From positions 75 to 64,074 of the forward strand of contig JACQBP010000010.1 of the NCBI GenBank assembly GCA_016194445.1: DNA of 64,000 bases, read 5' to 3'. The DNA is from Candidatus Liptonbacteria bacterium (lineage in GTDB: Bacteria; Patescibacteriota; Minisyncoccia; UBA6257; 2-01-FULL-56-20). The translations under genes were made by a program, and so were the position numbers. The notes beneath the pieces were generated by a model, which made no database searches, was not told where the DNA came from, and saw only the letters and a list, made by a program, of their open reading frames with translations. Each line of letters opens with the position of its first letter. Within the stretch, counting starts at the first letter, position 1. Shown piece by piece: positions 1 to 35,220 of this stretch.

Positions 1-22
1 GGGCTACCTCTCCGTTTCCGGG

Positions 23-3000
23 GTGGGCACCTTTGCCACCACGACCGTCTTCTCCTCGAACCCGCTCGCCAAAGCTTCCTCCTCACTCCTCCAGTTCGGG
101 CCGAACGTGATCCAGGGCGGGAACAGCGCTTCGGGGACCTACCTGGGAGTGAACCCCGTGGCTTTCGCGGGAGACTTCTTGAACTTCCAAACCAACTCCT
201 CGACCCAGTTTGTGGTTTCGGCCACCGGCACGGCCACGCTCGCGGGAAACCTGACCATCGCCGGCTTCACTTCTTCGAGCCAGGAGTACGTCAACTCCTC
301 GACCATCACGGGGCTCCGGTTTACCTCGGCCACGGGTACTAACCTCACCATCACCAATCTCTTGGACGTGCAGGGGAACCGCTACATCACCTCGACCGTG
401 GTCGCGGATCCCTTGACCCTCTCGCAGCTCTACGTGAACTCCTCGGCCACCATCGTGGGGCTCAACTTCACCTCGGCCACCGGCACCAACTTGAACGTGA
501 CCACGCTTGTTGGGACCACGGTTTCCTCGACCGGCCTCACCTTTTCAAACGCGACGGGGTCGGGGAACTTGCAGGTGGGACGCCACGGGCTCGGGAGTGA
601 TGACGGTGACGAATGTTTCTTCCACCGGGATTACTTTTACGAACGCCACTGGGTCGAGCTCTTTCGCCCTGACCGGTACCCCTCCGGTCGCGACGAGCTC
701 GCAACTCTTCCAGCTGGGGCCGAATTCAATTCAGCTCTCGAACGCGACCACCACCTATCTCGGCGCCAACATCGCGACCGGCTTTGGCGGCAACTTCCTC
801 GACTTCCAAGTCAACTCTTCTTCCCAGTTCCGGATGACCACCGTCTCCTCGACCGGGATCACTTTCACGAACGCCACCGGGAGCGGGAACTTCCAAGTGG
901 GCACCGGCATCTTCACGACCCTCGCGTCCTCAACGGGCATCACCTTTACGAACGCCACGGGCTCGGGAGTGATGACGGTCACCAATGTTTCCTCGACCGG
1001 GATCACTTTCACGAACGCGACGGGGTCGGGGAATCTCTCGGTCTCGGGCCTCACTTCTTCCTCCCAACTTTATGCCAACAGTTCCACACTCGTCGGCCTC
1101 AACTTCACGAATGCGACGCGATACTGACCGTGGCCAGCACGTCAAATATCTTTGTGATACTGGATACGGGACTAATTGGGGTGGGGACATCATCACCGAC
1201 GGCTCTCTTTCATATAGTAGGAGCCACTCCGGCGGCGGCCACGACCGCGTCGAATACGCTGGTCGTGGTAGGGGGGACGGGAGGCGCGGGGACATCTGGC
1301 GCTACTGGGGGAGTAGGCGGGCTGATTTCTTTAACTACGGGAAATGGGGGAGATCAAAACAATTCAGCGCTTCTTACCTCCGGTAAGGGCGGCGCTTTTT
1401 CAATCACGACTGGAAATGGTGGTTTGAATCAAGGAACTCTTCTGGCAGCCGGCGCTGGAGGCGCGATTACGATTCTGACTGGTAACGGTGGCAATTCAAG
1501 TTCTACCGGCATTAACGGAGGAGGAGCCGCCGGGGCGATAACGATACAGGGCGGGGTGGGGGGAACGGCAACGACTACGGAGAACGGAGGTAACGGTGGA
1601 AGTCTTACATTGCTTGGTGGGGCGGGTGGTTCAACGGCTTCCACGACTAACTTAGAAGTTGGTGGCAATGGAGGAAGTATTACGCTTAATCCGGGAGCGG
1701 GTGGGAATGGAGCCGCGAGCGGGACGACGGGGAATATCATCTTGGCTAGTTTGCGAGGACTGGTCGGCATAGGCACCTCGTCGCCGTCGGACAAGCTTAC
1801 TATTGGCGGTCGGCCAGGGGAAAATACCACTTCGTCGCTACTCTTTTTGGGACCGAGCGGACCAATTAGAGGCGGATCGGTTTCAGGCACGGTGATTGGG
1901 TCTAACTTTGTAACTTTCAACGGTGATTTTATAAATTTCCAGGTGAATTCCTCGACCCAGTTCCGGGTTTCAGCCACCGGCACGGTCTTCCTGAACGGCG
2001 GTCTCTTCGCGAGCACCACGGTTTCCTCAACCGGCATCACTTTCACGAATGCCACTGGTTCCGGCAACCTCACTGTTTTGGGAATAACCTCGAGCTCGCA
2101 GGAATTCGTGAACAGTTCCACGATTACGGGACTCCGGTTTACAAACGCCACCGGCACGACGCTTGTCATGACCACCGTCTCCTCGACCGGGATCACTTTC
2201 ACGAACGCCACCGGGTCGGGAGTGATGACGGTAACGAATGTGTCTTCCACGGGGATCACGTTTACAAATGCGACGGGGTCTGGTGCTTTGACGATGCTTG
2301 GAGGTAGCAACACAAGACTGGGAACAACTACTAACGCGGCGACGAATGCGATTCTCACTGTGGCCAGTACATCAAATATTTTCGTGATACTGGATACGGG
2401 ACTAATTGGAGTGGGGACATCATCACCGACGGCTCTCTTTCATATAATAGGAGCCACGCCGGCGGATGGGAAAAACGCGTCGGATACATTGGTAGTGGTC
2501 GGAGGAACTGGAGGTGGGCCAACAATTGGGGGTAAAGGTGGATTGATTTCGCTCACTACCGGAAATGGGGGAGCTGTAGGAACGACGGGAGACACGTCGG
2601 GAGCCGGCGGCGCTTTTACAATTAGAACTGGGAATGGTGGTTTGAATGAAGGTTTCGGAAGTACAGGCGCAGGAGGCAATATTTCGATTATAAGTGGCAA
2701 CGGTGGCCAGGCGAGTACATCTAATGCTGGTAACGCGGGAGCGGCTGGAACAATCACGATAAGTGGTGGCACTGGTGGAGTAGCGACGTCGACTTTAAGT
2801 GGAGGAGCGGGTGGGAGTATTAGCATTAGCGCCGGACCGGGTGGCGCGACGACTCTTTCGGGTTCAGACGTTGGGGGAGCGGGGGGCAACATTACTTTGA
2901 ACCCGGGAGCCGGTGGGAATGGAGCCGCGAGCGGAACAACTGGAAATATTATTTTGGCCAACTTGCGGGGACTGGTCGGAGTGGGGACGTCTTCGCCTTT

Positions 3001-5098
3001 TGCCAAACTTTCGATTGGCGGCACGCCACCTCAATCCAATACCAGCACGTTAGTTTTACTGGGTAACAATTTCCTCTCATCTTCAACTGCCTCTAATGGG
3101 AGCGGAACATTTTTAGGCGCTAACCCAGCGACGGGATTCAACGGAGATTTCTTAAATTTTCAAGTGAATTCCTCCACTAAGTTTCAGGTTAGCTCGTCAG
3201 GGGTTATAACCGCTACGACAGTTTCATCAACAGGTATCACTTTCACGAACGCGACGGGGAGCGGCAACTTCCAAGTGGGCACCGGCATCTTCACGACCCT
3301 CGCGTCCTCAACGGGCATCACCTTTTCAAACGCCACGGGGTCGGGGAATCTGCAGGTTACGACGCTTATTGCGACGGGGACCCTCGCTATCGCGACGACG
3401 TCTGCACCCATTGGTTCAACGAGCACCTTGTGGGTTTGCGCGAAATCGAACTGTACGGTGCCGGCGGCAACAACAAGCACTGACACGGTGGCTTTCTTTG
3501 CCTCTTCTCGGGGGACAACGACGAGTACATCTATTACGGCGCGGGGGACGATTACGGGCGGAATGGCGGACGTGGGAGAGTTTGTAAAAGTAGTGGGGGA
3601 TGAGAGTACCTATCAAGCGGGCGACGTGCTTTCGATTGCGGTGGCGGATTCGATTAGTTTTGAAAAGTCGAAGGAAGCTTATAACCCGTGGCTGGCCGGG
3701 GTGGTTACCGAGACCGCAGGGCTTATCGCCGGGGGAGGCGAGGATGGACGCTCGAGGACGGTAATGGCACTGGCCGGTCGGGTGCCAGTTAAAGTGACTG
3801 GTGAGAACGGACCGATTAAACAGGGCGACGCGCTTACCTCGGCCAGCCGCGAAGGTTATGCCATGAAAGCGACGAGGTTGGGACGAACGGTAGCGGTGGC
3901 GCTAGAATCATTCAGTGGTACCACGGCAAGCGATGACGGAAAGATTATGGCGCTCATCAATCTTTCTTGGTTTGGCGGCAATATTAAGGAGGGTTTGAGC
4001 ATCAATGAGAGCGCTGGAGATATCGGCCGCCAAGCGCTCGATATTTTTCAGACCTATAAGATTGGAGGCCAGGCCAGCACGTCTTCTGAATTACTAACTG
4101 GCCGGGTGGCGGCTGAGCTAGAAGTGATCACGCCCAAAATTCTCACGAATGAACTCACCGTGAGCAGTACCGCTTCAATCAATGGGAATTTGGCGGTGGG
4201 AGGGGAAGCGGTTTTCACCGGTAAGGTAACGGCGCAACAGATCGAAGCGCAAGAGATAAAGAGTCCGGGACTCGATTACATCTCGAATACCTTGGCAACT
4301 TTAGGAAACTCGATGGATGATATTAAAAATAGAGTCACGGCGCTGGAAAACGGTTTTGGGGTGAGTTCTTCGACACAAGCGAGTAGTAGCTTAGGAATAG
4401 ATCTACAAGCTCTATTAGATAAAACTGGCGCGCTCACTATAAGTGGAGAGCTGACCTTAAAGAATGGTTTGAAGGTGGACAAGATCGAATCTTTAGGCGA
4501 GACGATCGCCTTTATGAGCGATACGGTTTTCTTCGGGCGACCTTATTTAAATAGCGACAGCGGCGGTTTCGCGGTCGTTTCGCAAGGGGAGCGGAAGGTA
4601 GAAGTGGTTTTTGATAAGGAGTATGTGGCGCAGCCGGTCGTAAATGCCACGATTTCGCTTGAAGATAACGCCAACGCGACGAGTACCGAAGAAGCGATTT
4701 TTGGAAATGGATTAAATTACTTAGTGACTCGAAAGAACCCGAAGGGCTTTACGATTGTGCTTAACAAACCCGCTCCGACGGATATAACTTTCAGTTGGGT
4801 GGCGCTTGCGGTTAAAGACGCAAAGACTTTTACATTTAAGTCGACTCCGGAACCTCCTCCGGCTTCGGCGCCGCTGCCGCCGGATGGAACAGTGGTTCCG
4901 CAAGCCACTTCGACAACAGAGGTTTCTTCTTCAACTTCTTCTACGACGCCAGAAGTTTCATCTTCAACCGATACGGGATTATTGCCACCTGATCTTGCGA
5001 CATCCACTCCGAGTTTAACGGGTGATGTTTTGGGCAGCCCGGCGACTAGTTCACCGCCTGATTTACCGCCGCCGGAAGCCACTTCGGCGCCGCCGTAA
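23..5098 (+). CDS. giant repetitive cell-surface/adhesin-like protein. It is 5'-partial: the frame is open to the window edge and the first listed codon is GTG
   Basis: Continuous 1691-codon ORF. It has tandem ~15-aa SSTGITFTNATGSGN-type repeats and Gly-rich GNGG-type blocks (beta-helix-like). A ~1.2 kb module is duplicated: near-identical ~110-nt DNA segments lie at ~1121-1232 and ~2351-2462, plus the repeated peptide ILTVASTSNIFVILDTGLIGVGTSSPTALFHI. The C-terminus has a non-repetitive domain with a coiled-coil-like stalk and a Ser/Thr/Pro-rich tail. No stop occurs upstream in frame. Confidence 0.75.
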   Translation: MGTFATTTVFSSNPLAKASSSLLQFGPNVIQGGNSASGTYLGVNPVAFAGDFLNFQTNSSTQFVVSATGTATLAGNLTIAGFTSSSQEYVNSSTITGLRFTSATGTNLTITNLLDVQGNRYITSTVVADPLTLSQLYVNSSATIVGLNFTSATGTNLNVTTLVGTTVSSTGLTFSNATGSGNLQVGRHGLGSDDGDECFFHRDYFYERHWVELFRPDRYPSGRDELATLPAGAEFNSALERDHHLSRRQHRDRLWRQLPRLPSQLFFPVPDDHRLLDRDHFHERHRERELPSGHRHLHDPRVLNGHHLYERHGLGSDDGHQCFLDRDHFHERDGVGESLGLGPHFFLPTLCQQFHTRRPQLHECDAILTVASTSNIFVILDTGLIGVGTSSPTALFHIVGATPAAATTASNTLVVVGGTGGAGTSGATGGVGGLISLTTGNGGDQNNSALLTSGKGGAFSITTGNGGLNQGTLLAAGAGGAITILTGNGGNSSSTGINGGGAAGAITIQGGVGGTATTTENGGNGGSLTLLGGAGGSTASTTNLEVGGNGGSITLNPGAGGNGAASGTTGNIILASLRGLVGIGTSSPSDKLTIGGRPGENTTSSLLFLGPSGPIRGGSVSGTVIGSNFVTFNGDFINFQVNSSTQFRVSATGTVFLNGGLFASTTVSSTGITFTNATGSGNLTVLGITSSSQEFVNSSTITGLRFTNATGTTLVMTTVSSTGITFTNATGSGVMTVTNVSSTGITFTNATGSGALTMLGGSNTRLGTTTNAATNAILTVASTSNIFVILDTGLIGVGTSSPTALFHIIGATPADGKNASDTLVVVGGTGGGPTIGGKGGLISLTTGNGGAVGTTGDTSGAGGAFTIRTGNGGLNEGFGSTGAGGNISIISGNGGQASTSNAGNAGAAGTITISGGTGGVATSTLSGGAGGSISISAGPGGATTLSGSDVGGAGGNITLNPGAGGNGAASGTTGNIILANLRGLVGVGTSSPFAKLSIGGTPPQSNTSTLVLLGNNFLSSSTASNGSGTFLGANPATGFNGDFLNFQVNSSTKFQVSSSGVITATTVSSTGITFTNATGSGNFQVGTGIFTTLASSTGITFSNATGSGNLQVTTLIATGTLAIATTSAPIGSTSTLWVCAKSNCTVPAATTSTDTVAFFASSRGTTTSTSITARGTITGGMADVGEFVKVVGDESTYQAGDVLSIAVADSISFEKSKEAYNPWLAGVVTETAGLIAGGGEDGRSRTVMALAGRVPVKVTGENGPIKQGDALTSASREGYAMKATRLGRTVAVALESFSGTTASDDGKIMALINLSWFGGNIKEGLSINESAGDIGRQALDIFQTYKIGGQASTSSELLTGRVAAELEVITPKILTNELTVSSTASINGNLAVGGEAVFTGKVTAQQIEAQEIKSPGLDYISNTLATLGNSMDDIKNRVTALENGFGVSSSTQASSSLGIDLQALLDKTGALTISGELTLKNGLKVDKIESLGETIAFMSDTVFFGRPYLNSDSGGFAVVSQGERKVEVVFDKEYVAQPVVNATISLEDNANATSTEEAIFGNGLNYLVTRKNPKGFTIVLNKPAPTDITFSWVALAVKDAKTFTFKSTPEPPPASAPLPPDGTVVPQATSTTEVSSSTSSTTPEVSSSTDTGLLPPDLATSTPSLTGDVLGSPATSSPPDLPPPEATSAPP

Positions 5099-5168
5099 AA
5101 CGTGCATATGTTGACCCAGCGCCACAAATAGGACATTTCTTTTTAATTATCGCTTTTGTGGTGCTGGG

Positions 5169-5196
5169 TTGACAGACTCCTTCTAACCTCTAAAAT
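5169..5196 (+). promoter_or_regulatory. sigma70-like promoter: TTGACA, 16-nt spacer, TAAAAT. It implies a leaderless transcript for the ORF at 5203
   Basis: TTGACA at 5169-5174 and TAAAAT at 5191-5196. The ATG at 5203 lies 7 nt downstream of the -10. No Shine-Dalgarno sequence is present. Confidence 0.5.
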
Positions 5197-5202
5197 ATAG
5201 TT

Positions 5203-8298: not shown

Positions 8299-10395
8299 AT
8301 GAGAAAGCTTTTGAGGAGTGTCTTTTTGTGTCTGTGGCTGATTTTCACACTAGCTCCTTTAGGCGCAAAGGCAAGTCCTGGGATTAGTTCAGCTTCATTA
8401 TCTCTGGCGCCGGCCACCGGTACTTTTACGGTGGGGAGCACGTTTACGGTTTCGCTTTTTTTAAATACGGGGGGACAAGCAGTGAACGCCATCGAGGCCA
8501 ATTTGAATTTCCCGACCGATAAATTGCAAGTAGTGGCGCCTTCGGCTGGGAAGTCTTTGATCCACGTCTGGATTAATCAACCGACTTATTCGAACATTGA
8601 CGGCTCCCTGAAGTTTCAGGGCGCGATACCGAATCCCGGCATTAACACGGAGAGCGGTTTGATTTCGACGGTGACTTTCCGAGTGAAGCAGGTGGGGGTG
8701 GCAACCGTAAAAATCTCCGACAGCTCGCGGGTGCTTTTAAACGATGGCAAAGGCACCGATATTTTGGGCAACACGGATAGCGGCGTCTACGAACTGATTT
8801 TGCCGCCGCCGGCGGGACCACTCGTCGTGTCACCAACTCATCCCGACCAGACTAAGTGGTACCCAATTAACAACGCAGCCTTGGGGTTTGAAAAAATTCC
8901 GGCGGTTCGAGGTTTCAGTTATGTTTTGAATGATTCACCAGTGGATGTCCCAGACGAAATTTCGGAAGGCATAAAAACTAACGTGGTTTACACGAACCTG
9001 GCCGACGGGATTCATTATTTCCATATTAAATCTTTAGGGGCGGATGCGTGGGGTGGAGTGACCCATTTTGCGGTTAATGTTGATAAGACTCCACCGGCCA
9101 CCTTTCCGGTTAATATTTCACCCAGCAATTATACTTCTCGTCGACAGCCCATTATTGATTTTAGAACGACGGATGCGGCCTCGGGGATAGATCACTACGA
9201 ACTGAAGATTATTCCTTTAGATGGGTCGGCGCGAGAAGCATTGGGGGTGCAAGATAAGAACGGCACGCCTTTTTTTATTGAAGTTAATCCTCCCTACTAT
9301 CGGGAACTGGGACTAGGGAGATACGACGTGGTGGTTCGGGGTTACGATAAGGCGGGTAATTTTTATCAGGCGACAGAGAAGCTGACGATTACTCGAGCGG
9401 TTTTTGAGTTGGTGAGAGGCGAGGGTATCCAGATTAAGGGAGTAATTCTCATTCGGTGGCCCTACGTTTGGGCTTTGTGTATTCTGCTTTTAATCATTTT
9501 AGGTTACTTAGGGAGAAGAGTTTTAAGGAGACACCGGGAGGTGCATGAGTATCTCGAGAGTGGGGCTCTCCGGCATCCGACGGTGGCTCCCAAGCTTGAA
9601 GAATTGAGGAAAAAACAGAAAGATTACTCTTCCGATTCAGGGAAAGGGCTCGCCGCAGTCGTGATGCTGATTTTAATGGCCGGGGCGATGGTTTTAGGTT
9701 CTAAGGAAGCGAGGGCTCAAGTGAAAGCGGCCAGTGTCTTGAAAGTGGAGCCGCCGATTGTGACTCTTTTGCCGAAAGCGATTTCGAATGACGAAATTTT
9801 GTATATCGGCGGGAGAGCGGGAGCGCCGGAAGCGGAAGTCATCGTGTATCTTCAGAATAAAACGACGGGTGAGTCGATCAGCCAATCCGTCAAGACGGAT
9901 CAAACCGGAGCCTGGTTTTATTCATTCTCGCAGTTTTTCAACCCGGGCGATTACGTGGTTTGGACCCAGCTTAAAGTGGGGGACGAACTTAGCCCGCCAA
10001 GTCCGGAGAGGAGTTTGGTGGTGGCGCCCTTAGCCATTCAGATTGGAGGAGGACGGCTGGGGTACGAGGAGTTGTATTTGATAATTCTTTCGGTTTTGAG
10101 CGCGGCGTTTTTGGGGATCATCATATTTATCGGCTACCATTCTTATCACCAACGGGTAAAGAGTAAGCGACTACTTGAGGAGATTCGCCAGGCGGAGGAA
10201 TCGGTGAGAAGAGGGTTTCTGGTTTTGCGCCGTGACATTGAGGCGGAACTGGCTACGATCCGAAGAGCCAAGATGAGCAAGGAGCTCCAGTTTGAGGAGA
10301 AGACTCGTGAGGAGAAGTTGCTTAAGGATTTGGAATTAGTCAACAATTACGTCGGCAAGGAGATTTGGGAAATCGAGAAGGAGCTCGGTTCGTGA
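8299..10395 (+). CDS. large cohesin-like domain membrane protein with a C-terminal coiled coil
   Basis: The N-terminal module is paralogous to 7374-8288 (TFTVGSTFTVSLFLNTGGQAVNAIEANLNFPTDKLQVV...VATVKISDSSRVLLNDGKGT). It has TM helices at ~aa 385-405 and 445-460 and again ~aa 590-615, and a charged coiled-coil C-terminus. Confidence 0.55.
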   Translation: MRKLLRSVFLCLWLIFTLAPLGAKASPGISSASLSLAPATGTFTVGSTFTVSLFLNTGGQAVNAIEANLNFPTDKLQVVAPSAGKSLIHVWINQPTYSNIDGSLKFQGAIPNPGINTESGLISTVTFRVKQVGVATVKISDSSRVLLNDGKGTDILGNTDSGVYELILPPPAGPLVVSPTHPDQTKWYPINNAALGFEKIPAVRGFSYVLNDSPVDVPDEISEGIKTNVVYTNLADGIHYFHIKSLGADAWGGVTHFAVNVDKTPPATFPVNISPSNYTSRRQPIIDFRTTDAASGIDHYELKIIPLDGSAREALGVQDKNGTPFFIEVNPPYYRELGLGRYDVVVRGYDKAGNFYQATEKLTITRAVFELVRGEGIQIKGVILIRWPYVWALCILLLIILGYLGRRVLRRHREVHEYLESGALRHPTVAPKLEELRKKQKDYSSDSGKGLAAVVMLILMAGAMVLGSKEARAQVKAASVLKVEPPIVTLLPKAISNDEILYIGGRAGAPEAEVIVYLQNKTTGESISQSVKTDQTGAWFYSFSQFFNPGDYVVWTQLKVGDELSPPSPERSLVVAPLAIQIGGGRLGYEELYLIILSVLSAAFLGIIIFIGYHSYHQRVKSKRLLEEIRQAEESVRRGFLVLRRDIEAELATIRRAKMSKELQFEEKTREEKLLKDLELVNNYVGKEIWEIEKELGS

Positions 10396-13644: not shown

Positions 13645-15537
13645 ATGCCATTTTTATCGCAAGATGTAGTTTATTTCGGCCGGACGGATTTTCGTAACGC
13701 GAAGCGACTTTTCGGCATTAAGCGCAACGATCGGCGACAGCATATGTACGTGGTGGGGAAGACTGGGACTGGTAAAACGGCTCTGCTTCACAACATGGTG
13801 GTGCAAGATATTACGAATGGCGAGGGGGTGTGCGTGGTGGATCCGCACGGAGAGTTTGTGGAAAGTCTTTTGTCTAAAATTCCGGAGGAGAGACTCAAGG
13901 ATGTGATTTATTTCAATCCGGCGGACACCGATTATCCGATGGGGTTTAATCCGCTCGAGTTGCCGGATCAAAAATATAAACACTTGGCGGCTTCGGGGCT
14001 GATGGCCATTTTTACCAAGATTTGGGCGAATGTTTGGTCGGCGAGGATGGAGTACATTTTAAATAACGCTATTTTGGCGCTCTTAGAGACGCCGGGATCG
14101 ACACTTTTGGGAGTGAATAGAATTTTAGTCGACAAGGATTTCCGCCAAAAGATTATTGTGAACGTCAAAGATCCGGTGGTCAAGGCTTTTTGGACCAACG
14201 AGTTTGAAGCTTGGCGGGATCAGTTTCGCAACGAAGCCATCGCGCCGATTCAAAATAAAGTCGGGCAATTTCTTTCGACTGATTTGATTCGGAATGTCGT
14301 CGGTCAGCCGAAGAGCACGATCGACATTTTCGAGATTATAAACACCCGGAAAATTTTCCTCGTCAATGTTTCGAAGGGGCGGATTGGGGAGGACAATTCC
14401 GCGCTTTTAGGGGCGATGCTCATCACTAAAATTCAGCTCTCGGCGATGGAGCGGGTGCGGATTCCAGAGGAAGAACGGGCGGATTTTTATTTATACGTCG
14501 ACGAGTTTCAAAATTTTGCCACTGATTCCTTTGCCGGCATTCTTTCGGAGGCAAGGAAGTATCGGTTGAATTTGATTTTGGCGCACCAGTACATTGGGCA
14601 GCTGGTGACGGACGTTTCGACCAAAGTGCGGGACGCAGTTTTTGGCAACTGCGGGACGATGGTGATTTTTCGGATTGGGGCTACAGACGCCGAATTTTTG
14701 GAGAACGAACTGACACCCGAGTTTTTGCCAGAAGATATGGTCAACCTGCCGAATTACGCGGTTTATTTGAAGCTGATGGTGAACGGGATTACCTCGCGAC
14801 CGTTTTCGGCGGCGACGTTGCCGCCGTTTAAGGTGCCGACTTCTTCGGTGACGATTGAGAAGGTGCTCGAAGATTCTAGAAAAAATTACACGCGTTCGAG
14901 ATATGAAGTCGAGTCTCAAATTAATAGCTGGAGCGGGATGATGGGGGATGTGGTCGGTGGAGACGAAGAGAAAGCGAGGAGCGGAGTGGAACCGGGAGGT
15001 AAGTTGCCTGAGGGTCAAAAAATCGCGGCGACCTGTTCTTCTTGCGGGAAAAGGACGGAGCTGAATTTTGTGCCCACCGAGGGGCGGCCGATTTACTGCC
15101 GCGATTGTTTGGCGAAGATAAAAACGGGCGAGATGCCGAGAGTGAAGGTAGGGAAGGTCAAAGTGGCTAAACCTCAAGATAAATATTTTTCGGATTTGGC
15201 GGGATTGGGCATTGAATTTGAAGAAGATAAAAAGAAAGAGGGGGATGAGGAGGGAGGAGAAGGCAGTGAGCCTTCGAGGAGACCGGGGGGTTTGGCAACT
15301 CCGACTGGCCGAGGAATAAAGGAAATGGCGGAGGCGTCACTAAAAAAAGAAGTTTCCTTGCACTTAAGCGATCTAAAACCTAACGAGAAAGAGAGGACAC
15401 AAAAGCCGAAAAAAACTTCGGGTTTAAATATCGAAGAACTCCGGCGATCGATCACGGAAGCTTTGGAAAACCAAACGGCGGTTACTAAGGCGGAAGACAG
15501 TAATCAAAATGACTTTAGAGAAGAGAAGGCGATTTGA
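13645..15537 (+). CDS. FtsK/HerA/VirD4-superfamily P-loop ATPase (TraD/VirD4 coupling-protein-like, DUF87-like) with a C-terminal zinc ribbon
   Basis: Walker A GKTGTGKT, Walker B YLYVDEFQNF and a VDPHGEF motif. The C-terminus has CSSCGKRTELNFVPTEGRPIYCRDC. It is paralogous to 37693-39162. Confidence 0.6.
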   Translation: MPFLSQDVVYFGRTDFRNAKRLFGIKRNDRRQHMYVVGKTGTGKTALLHNMVVQDITNGEGVCVVDPHGEFVESLLSKIPEERLKDVIYFNPADTDYPMGFNPLELPDQKYKHLAASGLMAIFTKIWANVWSARMEYILNNAILALLETPGSTLLGVNRILVDKDFRQKIIVNVKDPVVKAFWTNEFEAWRDQFRNEAIAPIQNKVGQFLSTDLIRNVVGQPKSTIDIFEIINTRKIFLVNVSKGRIGEDNSALLGAMLITKIQLSAMERVRIPEEERADFYLYVDEFQNFATDSFAGILSEARKYRLNLILAHQYIGQLVTDVSTKVRDAVFGNCGTMVIFRIGATDAEFLENELTPEFLPEDMVNLPNYAVYLKLMVNGITSRPFSAATLPPFKVPTSSVTIEKVLEDSRKNYTRSRYEVESQINSWSGMMGDVVGGDEEKARSGVEPGGKLPEGQKIAATCSSCGKRTELNFVPTEGRPIYCRDCLAKIKTGEMPRVKVGKVKVAKPQDKYFSDLAGLGIEFEEDKKKEGDEEGGEGSEPSRRPGGLATPTGRGIKEMAEASLKKEVSLHLSDLKPNEKERTQKPKKTSGLNIEELRRSITEALENQTAVTKAEDSNQNDFREEKAI

Positions 15538-16234
15538 TATCATTACGATTTTCCCGAAGATCTTTGATTCTTACATTGGAGAGTCTTTTTTTAAGCGCGC
15601 GATTAAGGCGGGACTAATCGAGATTCGGACGCATAATCTGCGAGATTTCACTAACGATAAACATGCGAGAGTTGATGATCGGCCTTTTGGCGGGGGACCC
15701 GGGATGGTCCTAAAAATCGAACCGATTTTCCGAGCTGTTCAAAATGTTCGAGTTGATCGAAATGTTCGAAATGACGATCAAGCGAAGCGATCCATCAAGC
15801 GAAGTGATCGAGCGGTTCGAACTCGAGTTATTCTCTTCAGCACTCGGGGAAAGAAATTGGACGCGAAGATGGCGCAGAGGCTGGCGAAGTATGACCAATT
15901 AATTTTGATTTGCGGGAGATATGAGGGAGTGGATGAAAGGGTGGCAAAATATGTTGCCGACGAAGAAATCTCGATCGGGGATTATGTTTTGTCGGGAGGC
16001 GAATTGCCGGCCGCTGTTTTGATTGAGACGATCAGTCGTTTTTTGCCGGGTTTTTTGGGCAAGCGGGAGTCACTCGAGGAAGTTAAGGGTACTTATCCGG
16101 TTTATACTCAACCGGCTGATTTTCGGCCGATAAAATCGAGAAGTGTCTGGAAGGCGCCGAAAGTTTTGTTGTCGGGAGATCACAAAAAAATCCAAGCATG
16201 GCGATCCGACAAAAAGTCCTCTTCTGGGGTTTGA
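15509..16234 (+). CDS. trmD: tRNA (guanine37-N1)-methyltransferase
   Basis: TrmD motifs RFDIITIFP, PFGGGPGMVL, CGRYEGVDERV and GDYVLSGGELPA. A ~30-aa low-complexity insertion is encoded by short direct DNA repeats (15730-15810). Confidence 0.85.
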   Translation: MTLEKRRRFDIITIFPKIFDSYIGESFFKRAIKAGLIEIRTHNLRDFTNDKHARVDDRPFGGGPGMVLKIEPIFRAVQNVRVDRNVRNDDQAKRSIKRSDRAVRTRVILFSTRGKKLDAKMAQRLAKYDQLILICGRYEGVDERVAKYVADEEISIGDYVLSGGELPAAVLIETISRFLPGFLGKRESLEEVKGTYPVYTQPADFRPIKSRSVWKAPKVLLSGDHKKIQAWRSDKKSSSGV

Positions 16235-17634
16235 TTTTTCTTTTAGGTATTTTTGGCGCTTCGAGCGGGTGGAGTTTTTATTGGGTTTTTTTATTGGCCG
16301 GAGTTGGCGCTTTGATTTTTTGGCGGTTTAGAAAAGAAAAGAAAGGGGCATTACTAGTGGTTGGGACTTTGGTTGGTCTTGGCCTCGGATTTTTTTACTA
16401 CAGTTTTTATATTAATTTCACCGAGCGGAACCAAAACATTGTTTTGGACCGGAAAATTAATTTTGCGGGTGTGGTTACGAAAACCGAGATGCGGGACACT
16501 TATCAAAAATTAATTTTAGAACTTACGCCGCCTGATCGGGGGACGGTGATGGTCTTAGCTAAGCCAGCGCCAAACTTTGAGTACGGCGATCTTCTTAGGA
16601 TGGAAGGGGAAATTAGGGCGAGTCAGTTTGTCAATCAACCGCCCACGGTCGCTTTCCCAAAAATTGAAGTCGAAGCTAAAGATCAAGGGTTTTGGTTAAA
16701 AGCTGAACTTTATAAATTTAAAAACCATTTGACCGCTCAATTTAAGAAATATCTGAACGCTGACCAGGCGGCGCTCGTTTCGGGGATTACTTTCGGCGAG
16801 CGAGCTGAATTTAACAAAGATTTGAAAAACGATATGGCTCGAAGCGGAGTGACTCACATTGTGGCCTTGTCGGGCTACAACATCGCTGTTTTAGTTTTGG
16901 CCATTGAGCGGTCTTTGAAGAAACTGATGGCTCGCCGAAAGAGATTTTATTTGACGCTCGCGATTATCTTCCTTTTCGTCCTAATGGTGGGTGGTGAGGC
17001 ATCGGTCGTGCGGGCGGCAATTATGGGCGCGCTCATTCTCCTCGCCCAACATATCGGCCGACCGCACGATGCGTTGCATATTATAATGCTCACGGCTCTC
17101 GGGATGGTTTTAGTGAATCCCACTCTTCTCGCGTACGACATCGGTTTTCAGCTTTCATTTTTGAGTTTACTCGGGATTATTTTTCTGGAGCCGGCTCTCC
17201 GAAGAATTTTTAAAGTTGAAACTAAAAAAGGGGAAAGCTTTTTGGCTTGGAGGGAAAATGGCCTCACAACTATGGCCGCGCAACTGGCTGTGATTCCCGT
17301 TTTGATCCACAGCTTCAATCAGTTTTCCTTGACGGCGGTGGTTTCAAACGCTTTGATTTTGGTGACGGTGCCTTTGGCCATGTTTTTGGGGTTTCTGCTC
17401 GTAACCCTAAGTTCCATTTCTTTTTTCCTCGGCTTTTTGGCGGCAAAACTGGTAAGCATTTTGGCTTTCTATCAAATTTCCATCATCAAGATATTTTCGG
17501 TAATTTATATACCTCTGCCCGGCGGCCAATTTTTAAATAGTGGAATTGTTTTTGTAGTTTACTATGCCTTACTGATTTGGCTGGTCTTGTTGAAACAAGA
17601 AAAGGTCCCGACATTTAAAAAAATAAACCGATGA
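16198..17634 (+). CDS. comEC: competence protein ComEC/Rec2 (membrane channel part)
   Basis: Polytopic membrane protein with the Competence-domain motif GVTHIVALSGYNIAVLV. Confidence 0.75.
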   Translation: MAIRQKVLFWGLIFLLGIFGASSGWSFYWVFLLAGVGALIFWRFRKEKKGALLVVGTLVGLGLGFFYYSFYINFTERNQNIVLDRKINFAGVVTKTEMRDTYQKLILELTPPDRGTVMVLAKPAPNFEYGDLLRMEGEIRASQFVNQPPTVAFPKIEVEAKDQGFWLKAELYKFKNHLTAQFKKYLNADQAALVSGITFGERAEFNKDLKNDMARSGVTHIVALSGYNIAVLVLAIERSLKKLMARRKRFYLTLAIIFLFVLMVGGEASVVRAAIMGALILLAQHIGRPHDALHIIMLTALGMVLVNPTLLAYDIGFQLSFLSLLGIIFLEPALRRIFKVETKKGESFLAWRENGLTTMAAQLAVIPVLIHSFNQFSLTAVVSNALILVTVPLAMFLGFLLVTLSSISFFLGFLAAKLVSILAFYQISIIKIFSVIYIPLPGGQFLNSGIVFVVYYALLIWLVLLKQEKVPTFKKINR

Positions 17635-28634: not shown

Positions 28635-30023
28635 ATGACTCGGAAAAGCCCTTCCCTACCTCGATTAAACGCTCACTTTGTAGGTATCGGCGGGATTGGA
28701 ATTAGCGCTTTGGCTAGGTGGTTTTTGGCTCAAAATTGGGCTGTTTCGGGTTCTGACCTGGCGGACAGTCAGATCGTGGCTGATTTAAGAAAAGCCGGCG
28801 TAAAGGTCAAAATTGGGCAAAAACAGGCTAATTTACCTAAGAAGGGCTTGGATATGGTCATTTACAGCTCGGCCGTGCCTTATTCCAATCCAGAACTGGT
28901 TGAGGCGCGACGGCGAGGTGTCAAGCCGCTTTCCTACCCGGAAGTGGTGGGGTGTCTCACCAAAGTTTATCGGACGATCGCGATTGCTGGCAGTCACGGC
29001 AAAAGTACCACAACGGCGCTCACTAGTTTGGTTTTGATGAAGGCCAAGTTGGATCCAAATGTCATACTTGGAACCAACCTGAAAGAATTTGGCAATTCTA
29101 ATTTTCGGAAAGGACGGTCCAAATGGTTGGTTTTGGAAGCCGACGAATGGAGCGCTTCTTTTTTGAATTATTACCCGGAGATTACGGTCGTGACGAATAT
29201 CGACAAAGAACATTTAGATTTTTACAAAAACTTGGCGAACGTTAAAAAAATTTTTTTGAAATTTTTAGGGAATACGAAAGTCGGCGGTTATTTGGTTTTG
29301 AATCGAGATGATAAGGCGCTTTTTTCGCTCAAGTCCCCTATCTTGAAGCTAGCGGTTAAAAATAAATTGGAGGTTTATTGGTATTCGTTGAATGATCGAG
29401 GATCGAGGATCGAGGATCGAGGTTTGAGAAAAGTTTTGAAGATCCCCGGAGAGCATAATGTGTCGAACGCGATGGCGGCCTTGTCGGTGGCGAGAATTTT
29501 GAAGATTAAGTTGTCAGTGGCGTTAAGAGCGCTAGGTTCTTATACGGGAGCGTGGAGGAGGTTTGAATACAAGGGTAGGTTTCAGGTTTCAGGTGTCAGG
29601 TGTCAGGTGTTTGATGATTACGCTCATCATCCAACTGAAATTAAAGCGACGCTCCAGGCGTTTCGAGAAAAATTTCCAAAATCAAAGTTAGTTTGTGTTT
29701 ATCAACCGCATCAAGCGAAGAGACTAAGAGCTTTGTTTAAAGAGTTCGTGGGAGCTTTTGAGCTCGCGGACATTTTAATTTTACTGCCTGTTTATGAGGT
29801 AGCGGGGCGGGATAAAACGAGTTCTGGTTTTACTTCTCAAAAGTTAGTGGATGTCATAAAGAAAAAATATCCCAAAAAAGAAGTTTACTATCTCCCCTCC
29901 CCTAAGCGAATTAGAAATATGTTACATGATACATGTGAAAAGTTTCATTACGACCACTGTGTGGTCGTAATGATGGGCGCGGGAGATATTGTGAACTACA
30001 CACCGTTGCTACTGCATAAATGA
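28635..30023 (+). CDS. murC: UDP-N-acetylmuramate--L-alanine ligase
   Basis: VHFVGIGGIGISALA, GSHGKSTTT, GEHNVSNAMAA and DDYAHHPTE MurC motifs. The gene contains two heptanucleotide tandem repeats: GATCGAG x4 at 29395-29422 and AGGTKTY x5 at 29577-29611. Confidence 0.85.
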   Translation: MTRKSPSLPRLNAHFVGIGGIGISALARWFLAQNWAVSGSDLADSQIVADLRKAGVKVKIGQKQANLPKKGLDMVIYSSAVPYSNPELVEARRRGVKPLSYPEVVGCLTKVYRTIAIAGSHGKSTTTALTSLVLMKAKLDPNVILGTNLKEFGNSNFRKGRSKWLVLEADEWSASFLNYYPEITVVTNIDKEHLDFYKNLANVKKIFLKFLGNTKVGGYLVLNRDDKALFSLKSPILKLAVKNKLEVYWYSLNDRGSRIEDRGLRKVLKIPGEHNVSNAMAALSVARILKIKLSVALRALGSYTGAWRRFEYKGRFQVSGVRCQVFDDYAHHPTEIKATLQAFREKFPKSKLVCVYQPHQAKRLRALFKEFVGAFELADILILLPVYEVAGRDKTSSGFTSQKLVDVIKKKYPKKEVYYLPSPKRIRNMLHDTCEKFHYDHCVVVMMGAGDIVNYTPLLLHK

Positions 30024-33820: not shown

Positions 33821-34346
33821 AAAAGAAGATAAATTTCTTAGGGAAAAAACTAAGGAATTTAAATTTTTCAAGAAATCCGCTCAAGCAGCTGGGAGGGAAT
33901 TGTCGTTTAAGGAAATCGACGAACTTCTTCGCGAGATGAGAAGGACGATGCGGGAAGCTAGGGGGGTGGGTTTGAGCGCGAATCAAATCGGACTCCCCTA
34001 TCGCTTATTTGTGGCGGAAGTGCCAGACGCGCAAGGGAGTGTGAAGTTTTACGCGGTCTTTAACCCACGACTTGAATTTCCTAAAAAGGAAAAAGCTGTG
34101 ATGGAAGAAGGGTGTTTAAGTGTGCCGGGGAAATACGGTTTTGTAGAGCGGGTAACCAGCGTGAAACTCAACGGAGTGGATAAACGAGGCCGAGCAGTCA
34201 AGATTAAAGCTTGGGGACTTTTGGCGCACGTTTTTCAACATGAAGTGGATCATTTGGAGGGAAAACTTTTTATTGATAAGGCTAAAGAAATTTTCGATGT
34301 ACCGAGAAGTGAAAGGTTAATTAAAAAGGAAAGCGATTTAAAATGA
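33789..34346 (+). CDS. def: peptide deformylase
   Basis: EGCLSVPG and QHEVDHLEG motifs. Confidence 0.9.
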   Translation: MAGKILTVQVKKEDKFLREKTKEFKFFKKSAQAAGRELSFKEIDELLREMRRTMREARGVGLSANQIGLPYRLFVAEVPDAQGSVKFYAVFNPRLEFPKKEKAVMEEGCLSVPGKYGFVERVTSVKLNGVDKRGRAVKIKAWGLLAHVFQHEVDHLEGKLFIDKAKEIFDVPRSERLIKKESDLK

Positions 34347-35188
34347 AATTTGTTTTTTTTGGTTCGCCTCGATTTGCGGAGATTGTTTTGAAAAAAATGA
34401 TCGAGGGCGGGTGTAAACCGAATTTAGTAATTTGCAATCCCGACCGGCCATTTGGGAGAAAAAAGGTGATCACTCCCCCACTTACCAAAATTTTGGCAAA
34501 GGAATACGAAATTGAAGTTTGGCAACCGGAGAAGTTGGATGTGGAAGGTTTTGAAAGAGAGGTGGACGGGGTGGATTTTGCGGTGGTGGCCGCTTACGCC
34601 AAGATTATCCCTCAAAGAATTGTGGATTTTCCGAATTTGGGGACGATTGGGGTTCACCCATCTTTACTCCCGAAGTACCGAGGGGCATCTCCGATTCAAA
34701 CAGCAATTTTGAAGGGCGAAAAGGAAACGGGTGTGACTTTGTATTTAATGGATGAAAAGCTCGACCACGGCCCTATTTTGGCCCAAAGAAAGACGATTAT
34801 AGGCGCTCACGAGAACTATTTACAGCTCGAGAAGCGATTAGCGGAGATGGGCGGAGAATTGCTGGCTGAAATTTTGCCGGATTTTTCGGCTGAGAAAATT
34901 AAGCCTAGGGTTCAGGATGAGACTCTCGTAACTTTCACGAAGAAATTTGTGACGCAAGACGCGTTTATTGAACCGAGGGATTTAGAGTTGGCAGAAGGCG
35001 GGAGTTATGAAAAGGCGTTAGAGATTCACCGCAAGGTGCGAGCTTTTGTTTTGGAACCGGGAGCGTGGACCACTTTTAATAAGAAACGGGTAAAAATTTT
35101 GGAGACGGATATTGTTGGCAAAAGTTTGAAGTTGAAGAAGATTCAGGTGGAGGGAGAGAAAGTGAAGGAAGTAGGAAGTAGGAAGTAG
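34343..35188 (+). CDS. fmt: methionyl-tRNA formyltransferase
   Basis: Formyltransferase N-domain (GVHPSLLPKYRGASPIQ) immediately downstream of def. The 3' end and stop lie within a GGAAGTA x4 heptamer repeat (35167-35194). Confidence 0.85.
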   Translation: MKFVFFGSPRFAEIVLKKMIEGGCKPNLVICNPDRPFGRKKVITPPLTKILAKEYEIEVWQPEKLDVEGFEREVDGVDFAVVAAYAKIIPQRIVDFPNLGTIGVHPSLLPKYRGASPIQTAILKGEKETGVTLYLMDEKLDHGPILAQRKTIIGAHENYLQLEKRLAEMGGELLAEILPDFSAEKIKPRVQDETLVTFTKKFVTQDAFIEPRDLELAEGGSYEKALEIHRKVRAFVLEPGAWTTFNKKRVKILETDIVGKSLKLKKIQVEGEKVKEVGSRK

Positions 35189-35220
35189 GAAGTGTTATCT
35201 TAAACTGCGGGTTTGCGTTT

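Follow-up and report, generated by a model that had tools for sequence, protein, structure and literature searches.

A 539-nt block in a shifted reading frame within a repeat-built surface-protein gene of Candidatus Liptonbacteria: a probable artifact of repeats at a contig end

Closest described systems

The subject of this study is HY093_00540, a partial gene for a giant repeat-built surface protein at one end of a contig from a metagenome-assembled genome (MAG) of Candidatus Liptonbacteria (Candidate Phyla Radiation (CPR)/Patescibacteria). The window analyzed is a stretch of 64,000 nt (positions 75 to 64,074 of contig JACQBP010000010.1 in assembly GCA_016194445.1), and all coordinates refer to it. 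The annotated gene is read in frame 2 throughout, and a block of 539 nt near its beginning (580-1118) gives repeat protein only in frame 3. The closest described systems are repeat-induced misassembly in short-read MAGs, compensated double frameshift alleles and, with regard to the encoded protein, the phi29 gp12 tailspike and the Bdellovibrio mosaic adhesive trimer (MAT) fibers. We consider the anomaly to be probably an assembly artifact (rough probability, 0.7), that is, unresolved repeats or a mis-join near the end of a short-read MAG contig.

As in repeat-induced misassembly, the anomaly is located within 1.2 kb of a contig end and among multi-copy exact repeats. Furthermore, the gene is split between two or more contigs of the bin, whose ends overlap, an independent assembly (k=31) is interrupted within these repeats, and the joins appear to skip repeats. 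It differs from the usual case in that the two skips cancel and the off-frame is open, and in that the case is known from contigs, not reads. Because the skips cancel and the off-frame is open, an annotator sees one clean open reading frame (ORF) and not a broken gene.

The locus also resembles compensated double frameshift alleles, in which shifts of opposite sign cancel and a stop-free segment in an alternative frame lies between them. On the other hand, the segment is 539 nt long, its original frame is undecayed, no ortholog shares the shift, and the assembly around it is unresolved. As for the protein, the length, repeat-built structure, N-terminus with a signal peptide, and weak domain matches recall phi29 gp12 and the Bdellovibrio MAT fibers; however, these matches are below family thresholds, 370 more residues follow the gp12-like domain, and the host is a CPR bacterium, neither a phage nor a predator.

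Reading frames, junctions and codon composition

Frame 3 is the frame in which the block evolved, and all of the evidence is concordant. The frame-3 translation (ATGSGVMTVTNVSSTGITFTNATGS...) consists of family repeat units and includes a complete module start (QLFQLGPNSIQ...FLDFQVNSSSQF; in a longer stretch, ...ATGSGVMTVTNVSSTGITFTNATGSSSFALTGTPPVATSSQLFQLGPNSIQLSNATTTYLGANIATGFGGNFLDFQVNSSSQF...); frame 2 across 580-1118, also open, gives Arg/His/Asp-rich text (GRHGLGSDDGDECFFHRDYFYERHW..., including HGLGSDDGDECFFHR). When the block was compared with in-frame paralogs, 19/30, 19/23, and 12/14 of the differences fell at third positions of frame 3. The ratios of synonymous to non-synonymous codon differences were 15:8, 18:3, and 10:3 in frame 3, versus 1:21, 2:20, and 0:11 in the annotated frame 2. 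GC contents by codon position in frame 3 were 0.40/0.59/0.79, and the flanks had the same pattern in their own frame. Moreover, the frame-3 translation matched more than 15 proteins of other CPR genomes (E values of 1e-19 to 1e-33). Two relatives from other groundwater/environmental metagenomes, L005 and L006, encode the same units in a single continuous frame, and both contain the intact unit NFQVGTGIFT(T)LASSTGLTFTNATGSG; the shifted frame was shared by none of the relatives. We regard these frame assignments as established.

At the first junction (J1; 579/580), the sequence is GGTGGG/ACGCC (the slash marks the join), and the 28 nt to the right of it (580-607) are identical to 952-979. In comparison with two other copies (863-1040 and 3241-3372) of the unit N(F/L)QVG-TGIFTTLASSTGITF(T/S)N-ATGSG, exactly 50 nt are missing at J1, 46 of which correspond to a 60-nt exact repeat (888-947, 3266-3325). 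The part upstream of J1 (W1) contains a module start (LLQFGPNVIQ...FLNFQTNSSTQF) and SSTG.TF.NATG units, and ends in ...NATGSGNLQVG. In the other members of the family, the residue after N(F/L)QVG is always T or S, with TGIF occurring four times and ATGSG never. At the second junction (J2; 1118/1119), GCGACG/CGATAC, a local alignment to copy 2 gave 5 extra nt (ACGAATGCGA/CGCGA/TACTG), and an alignment by unit architecture gave 196 missing nt. Canonical repeat units are cut abruptly at both junctions, and the frames cancel because 50 + 196 = 246 nt, which corresponds to 82 codons.

Several elements of the original prediction, which was made from the sequence alone, were confirmed by these results: a giant repeat-built surface protein, a segment of ~540 nt with its coding sequence in a different frame, and a pair of mutually compensating frame changes. 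The shifts, previously assigned to the regions of 578-583 and 1105-1125, were placed at 579/580 and 1118/1119. The proposed indels of 1 and 5 nt are correct as frame arithmetic (+1, then -1), but 50 and 196 missing nt fit the unit alignment equally well. The proposed ~400-aa module, in two full copies and a partial one, held for the duplication itself: direct repeats with a spacing of 1212-1230 nt and an identity of 75-81% demonstrated that a large module duplication is real. The count did not hold, since the window contains four module starts, at about 90, 690, 1830, and 3040.

A simple insertion of the block was rejected because, with 580-1118 removed, the flanks are in different frames and lack the conserved linker ...RLGT.T.ATN. 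The junction sequences also bear on a contingency locus, in which slipped-strand mispairing at simple repeats switches the frame on and off. The gene encodes a surface protein and has many repeats, as would be expected for such a locus. Nevertheless, inspection revealed no homopolymer, short tandem repeat, or slippery heptamer at either junction, Tandem Repeats Finder (TRF) reported no tandem array in 1-5200, and no inverted repeats that might serve an invertase were found flanking 580-1118. Phase variation by a repeat tract and an invertible segment were both rejected on these grounds, and a contingency locus appears scarcely credible.

Programmed ribosomal frameshifting was another of the options originally proposed; it would involve shifts of +1 at 579 and -1 at 1118, and a functional use of the -1 frame may be considered together with it. 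Both frames are open across 580-1118 and the -1 frame is open throughout the family, but nothing else points in this direction. Neither an X XXY YYZ heptamer nor a +1 site with a stop or rare codon was present at the junctions, an Rfam search revealed no frameshift element, the relatives are in one continuous frame, and the differences in frame 2 are nearly all non-synonymous. Frameshifting of this type was, therefore, rejected as highly improbable.

The original prediction attached weight to the fact that the segment "nevertheless leaves the ORF open". This weight was not justified because openness follows from codon composition. A plain codon shuffle, which disregards the fixed dipeptide contexts of the repeat, gave a probability of no stop of 0.02. 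When the protein was kept and synonymous codons were resampled with local usage, the probability increased to 0.06-0.12. After repair of the coding sequence, only one stop (at 340) interrupts the -1 frame between 2 and 1384; the +1 frame is interrupted by 7 stops within the block. The -1 frame of L006, a relative with 50% identity, is open for 333, 201, and 150 codons, and a 310-aa off-frame ORF is listed in it. The -1 frame is open because the codons of the Thr/Ser/Asn/Gly-rich repeat, with a high GC content at third positions (GC3), leave few stops; this composition effect is a direct observation. Selection for an open frame was, thus, rejected on the basis of the synonymous resampling (P of 0.06-0.12) and the -1 runs of up to 333 codons in relatives.

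As a separate observation on the family, the -1 frame of L006 (4201-7780; Ga0315291_10012271) and of L005 (107-4156) translates into a sequence rich in His and Arg (HQRH, HERH). ORFs of ~300 aa outside the coding frame arise as a by-product throughout the family, and they might be mistaken for genes in annotation.

Repeats at the contig end and origin of the joins

Starting at base 2, frame 2 runs without interruption until the stop codon at 5096-5098, and, since no stop precedes base 23, where the ORF was originally considered to begin, the gene continues upstream beyond the window. In GenBank, HY093_00540 (MBI3588890.1) is a partial protein of 1723 aa on a contig of 66,960 nt; it begins 75 nt before the window, at the contig end, and the deposited protein is translated uninterrupted through the off-frame segment.

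A second partial protein of the same MAG, P0044 (HY093_02950; MBI3589343.1; 269 aa), lies at the end of a 32,584-nt contig and includes the start codon together with a signal peptide (MKLNSKAFFCVALAASLVFVLSIFFVKSAQA) and an N-terminal domain characteristic of this family. Its C-terminal end (...NATGSSSFALTGTPPVSTSSQLFQLGPNSIQLSNATTTYLGANIATGFGGN) shares 49 of its last 50 residues with the block, as translated in frame 3 at 642-794 on the plus strand of the window. Therefore, the true 5' end of the gene enters the block in the block's own frame. HY093_00540 and HY093_02950 probably belong to one gene, with HY093_00540 as its 3' part.

In the Logan assembly of run SRR12113409, the same locus is represented by contig SRR12113409_1356, which is 99.87% identical over 13.4 kb without any indel. 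This contig begins at 3310, within the repeat copy 3266-3325, and leaves 1-3309 uncovered. The block region is within 0.65-1.2 kb of the contig end, with exact repeats of 28-60 nt in and around it, and a search of the JGI (Joint Genome Institute) metagenomes with an exact 35-mer of the block gave no match. Three features expected of an artifact were found, namely, repeats at a contig end, overlapping contig ends within the MAG, and an independent assembly that breaks in these same repeats. The position at the contig end, the overlap with a second contig, and the break in the independent assembly are observations, from which we infer the artifactual nature of the joins and their origin. Of the three options originally offered, the evidence favors an assembly error in repeats most: the contig end, the second contig in frame, the Logan break, and the truncation of units at the very places where exact multi-copy sequence would be expected all point to it.

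The HY093 prefix is provisionally attributed to one metagenomic study; the supplements gave no tie between HY093 and PRJNA640378. That candidate source study used Illumina reads only, with assembly by MEGAHIT 1.2.9 followed by scaffolding with IDBA-UD (PMC7906910).

The following sequence of events is proposed. Short reads would fail to resolve the 5' repeat region of a gene for a very large, secreted, fiber-like surface protein, such that the contig of the window ends inside repeats and its first 1.2 kb may be a path through a repeat tangle. The block would be genuine coding DNA that was joined wrongly at both 579/580 and 1118/1119, with each faulty join skipping a number of repeat nucleotides that is not a multiple of three. 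In the organism, the block would be read in its own frame and would continue the true N-terminus on the other contig. Two variants may be considered. In the first, a single copy of the block directly follows the N-terminal domain, and W1 is misplaced. In the second, the block is present in two nearly identical copies that were merged into a loop in the assembly (in the order N-terminus, block, W1, block, remainder of the gene), with the consequence that one contig would stop on entering the block and the other would begin with a sequence like the block end (QLYANSST...). In either variant, both joins skip repeat sequence and are not trustworthy.

Some points weigh against an artifact. The evidence consists of contigs and proteins, not reads, and thus the joins are not shown to be unsupported; the overlap between P0044 and the block is likewise known at the protein level only. 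Since de Bruijn contigs need junction k-mers in the reads, an artifact requires a fault in scaffolding or merging, or reads from a low-frequency variant. Under random joins, a common frame for W1 and the remainder of the gene, with the block in the one open off-frame, would be obtained in only ~1 of 6 cases. Furthermore, two real copies may exist, and the order in the contig may be correct, because P0044 and the block differ by one residue (S vs A).

The requirement for junction k-mers in the reads is also a point in favor of a real mutated allele in the dominant strain, in which two out-of-phase deletions or indels occurred and the second rescued the downstream frame. The allele would be a recent pseudogene or a tolerated variant with an Arg/His-rich insert of 180 residues. 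The exact cancellation of two shifts with no stop between them, the recombination-prone nature of repeat-rich surface genes, and the strain microdiversity of the locus (a tract of 10 among a total of 18 mismatches between the MAG and Logan contigs) are consistent with this explanation. However, openness needs no selection, and the junctions are without the microhomology or in-phase repeat endpoints expected of slippage or recombination. In addition, frame 3 is undecayed, with no stop and mostly synonymous divergence, such that any real event must have been very recent; the shifted frame was found in no relative; and another contig of the MAG leads from the true start codon into the block without a change of frame. 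A real pair of compensating frameshifts, which was also among the original options, was not supported by these findings, and we consider it unlikely. If the junctions were real, the gene might encode a frameshift-tolerant, rapidly rearranging surface adhesin in which, owing to the near stop-free -1 frame of the repeats, frame errors produced by recombination leave the protein untruncated and may be rescued by a second event; this appears quite improbable.

Base composition raises a further possibility, that of a chimeric contig in which the first 1.1 kb, up to 1118, derives from the homologous gene of a Liptonbacteria population with a higher GC content. GC3 is 0.72-0.97 in 2-1118 (0.82-0.97 in W1), versus 0.32-0.59 in 18 other genes of the window and 0.42-0.55 in the module starts of copies 2 and 3, and the candidate source study (link unconfirmed) has Liptonbacteria bins named with 53-58% GC. 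On the other hand, exact matches of 48 and 60 nt tie the block to copies 2 and 3 deep in the contig, the repeat units of these copies are similarly GC3-rich (0.75-0.85), and the 32.6-kb contig of the same MAG bin reads into the block. These results suggested that a chimera of this type is very unlikely. As an observation in its own right, the GC3 island at the contig end may be due to biased gene conversion among repeats or to a foreign/strain-chimeric piece.

Protein family, neighboring loci and implications

The features of the gene are listed in Table 1. The module is built from a module start, SSTGITFTNATGSG units, the AILTVAST junction, and GNGG blocks. The gene belongs to a large, unannotated family of CPR bacteria, of which we found 43 relatives; searches of the ORF parts against Pfam, NCBIfam, and PHROGs gave no match over the threshold. 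A scan of genome contigs, among which the source MAG is absent, yielded two distant loci only. A protein search with W1 gave no match, not even to the source protein, and its negative outcome is uninformative for such a low-complexity sequence. The N-terminal domain of P0044 (IPYQGRLEDPSGN...FKFSIW...) had a weak match to NF053851 (Bdello_MAT_N; 22.1 bits, E value of 1e-4), below the 60-bit cut-off, and the same type of N-terminus is also present in P0004, P0006, and P0045.

Domain A, which is without a Pfam model, occurs in at least 38 members of the family. A beta fold was predicted for it, with a pLDDT (predicted local distance difference test) of 82 overall and >95 in the core. Weak matches were obtained in a profile search against the PDB (6qz9, E value of 1e-3; 3gqh, E value of 0.03) and with Foldseek (3gqh, E value of 0.017, template modeling (TM) scores of 0.42/0.53; 3gqh and 3suc, TM scores of 0.42-0.53). 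The predicted structure of domain A, thus, weakly resembles the C-terminal autochaperone of phi29 gp12 and trimeric phage decoration proteins, and a putative trimeric attachment fiber is a reasonable inference.

Table 1. Coordinates of the features in HY093_00540 (window positions)
Feature	Position	Strand	Remarks
W1	2..579	+	5' part of the annotated partial gene, frame 2
J1	579..580	+	Frame 2 to frame 3; blunt join, without microhomology
Block (S3)	580..1118	+	539 nt, frame-3 coding (codons 579..1118)
Frame-3 ORF	507..1127	+	TGA at 1125-1127
J2	1118..1119	+	Frame 3 to frame 2; placeable within 1115-1120
Frame-2 coding	1119..3379	+	GNGG block 1, module 2, partial module 3
AILTVASTSNIF junction and Gly-rich GNGG block 1	1121-1800	+	Frame 2
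Module 2, full	about 1800-3000	+	Frame 2
Module 3, partial	about 3000-3400	+	Frame 2
Conserved C-terminal domain A	3380..4009	+	Motifs GAD.(A/G)E and ALAGRVPVKV.(T/S)ENG.I..GD
Conserved C-terminal domain B, then tail	4010..5098	+	Domain to about 4900, then Ser/Thr/Pro-rich tail and stop
60-nt exact repeat	888..947 = 3266-3325	+	
48-nt exact repeat	834-881 = 2168-2215	+	
29-nt exact repeat	846-874 = 990-1018 = 2180-2208	+	

Other observations were made along the window. The MAG contig differs from the Logan contig at 18 positions, which indicates strain microdiversity; 10 of these mismatches are within 19 nt (9336-9354) in the gene 8299-10395 (VVVRGYDKAGNF vs VVVRAFDRAGNF). This tract resembles a short recombination or gene-conversion tract, and the protein of the gene concerned has 698 aa and a weak Cohesin match. 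Pfam marks on the Logan locus indicated, downstream, a gene for a TrwB/VirD4-type coupling protein (13645-15537) and, within 13645-17634, a tRNA m1G methyltransferase gene and a ComEC-like competence gene (16198-17634). Three tandem repeats with a period of 7 nt, not a multiple of three, and 4-5 copies each were found at 29394-29422 (GATCGAG), 29577-29610 (AGGTGTC), and 35166-35193 (AGGAAGT). The first two are inside the ORF 28635-30023, and the third spans the stop codon of the ORF 34343-35188.

MBI3588890.1 should be used with caution because it contains about 180 residues of off-frame text, and errors of this type are propagated to protein databases and clusters. In GC3-rich repeat genes, the presence of a long ORF without interruptions only weakly indicates that the frame is correct. 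Frameshifts at this locus, if real, would be of limited note: the gene would represent either a recently formed pseudogene or a variant of what is probably a host-attachment fiber in an episymbiotic CPR bacterium. The combination found in this family, a MAT-like N-terminus, Thr/Ser/Asn/Gly-rich modules, and a gp12-like C-terminal domain, has no Pfam model and may merit a separate study.

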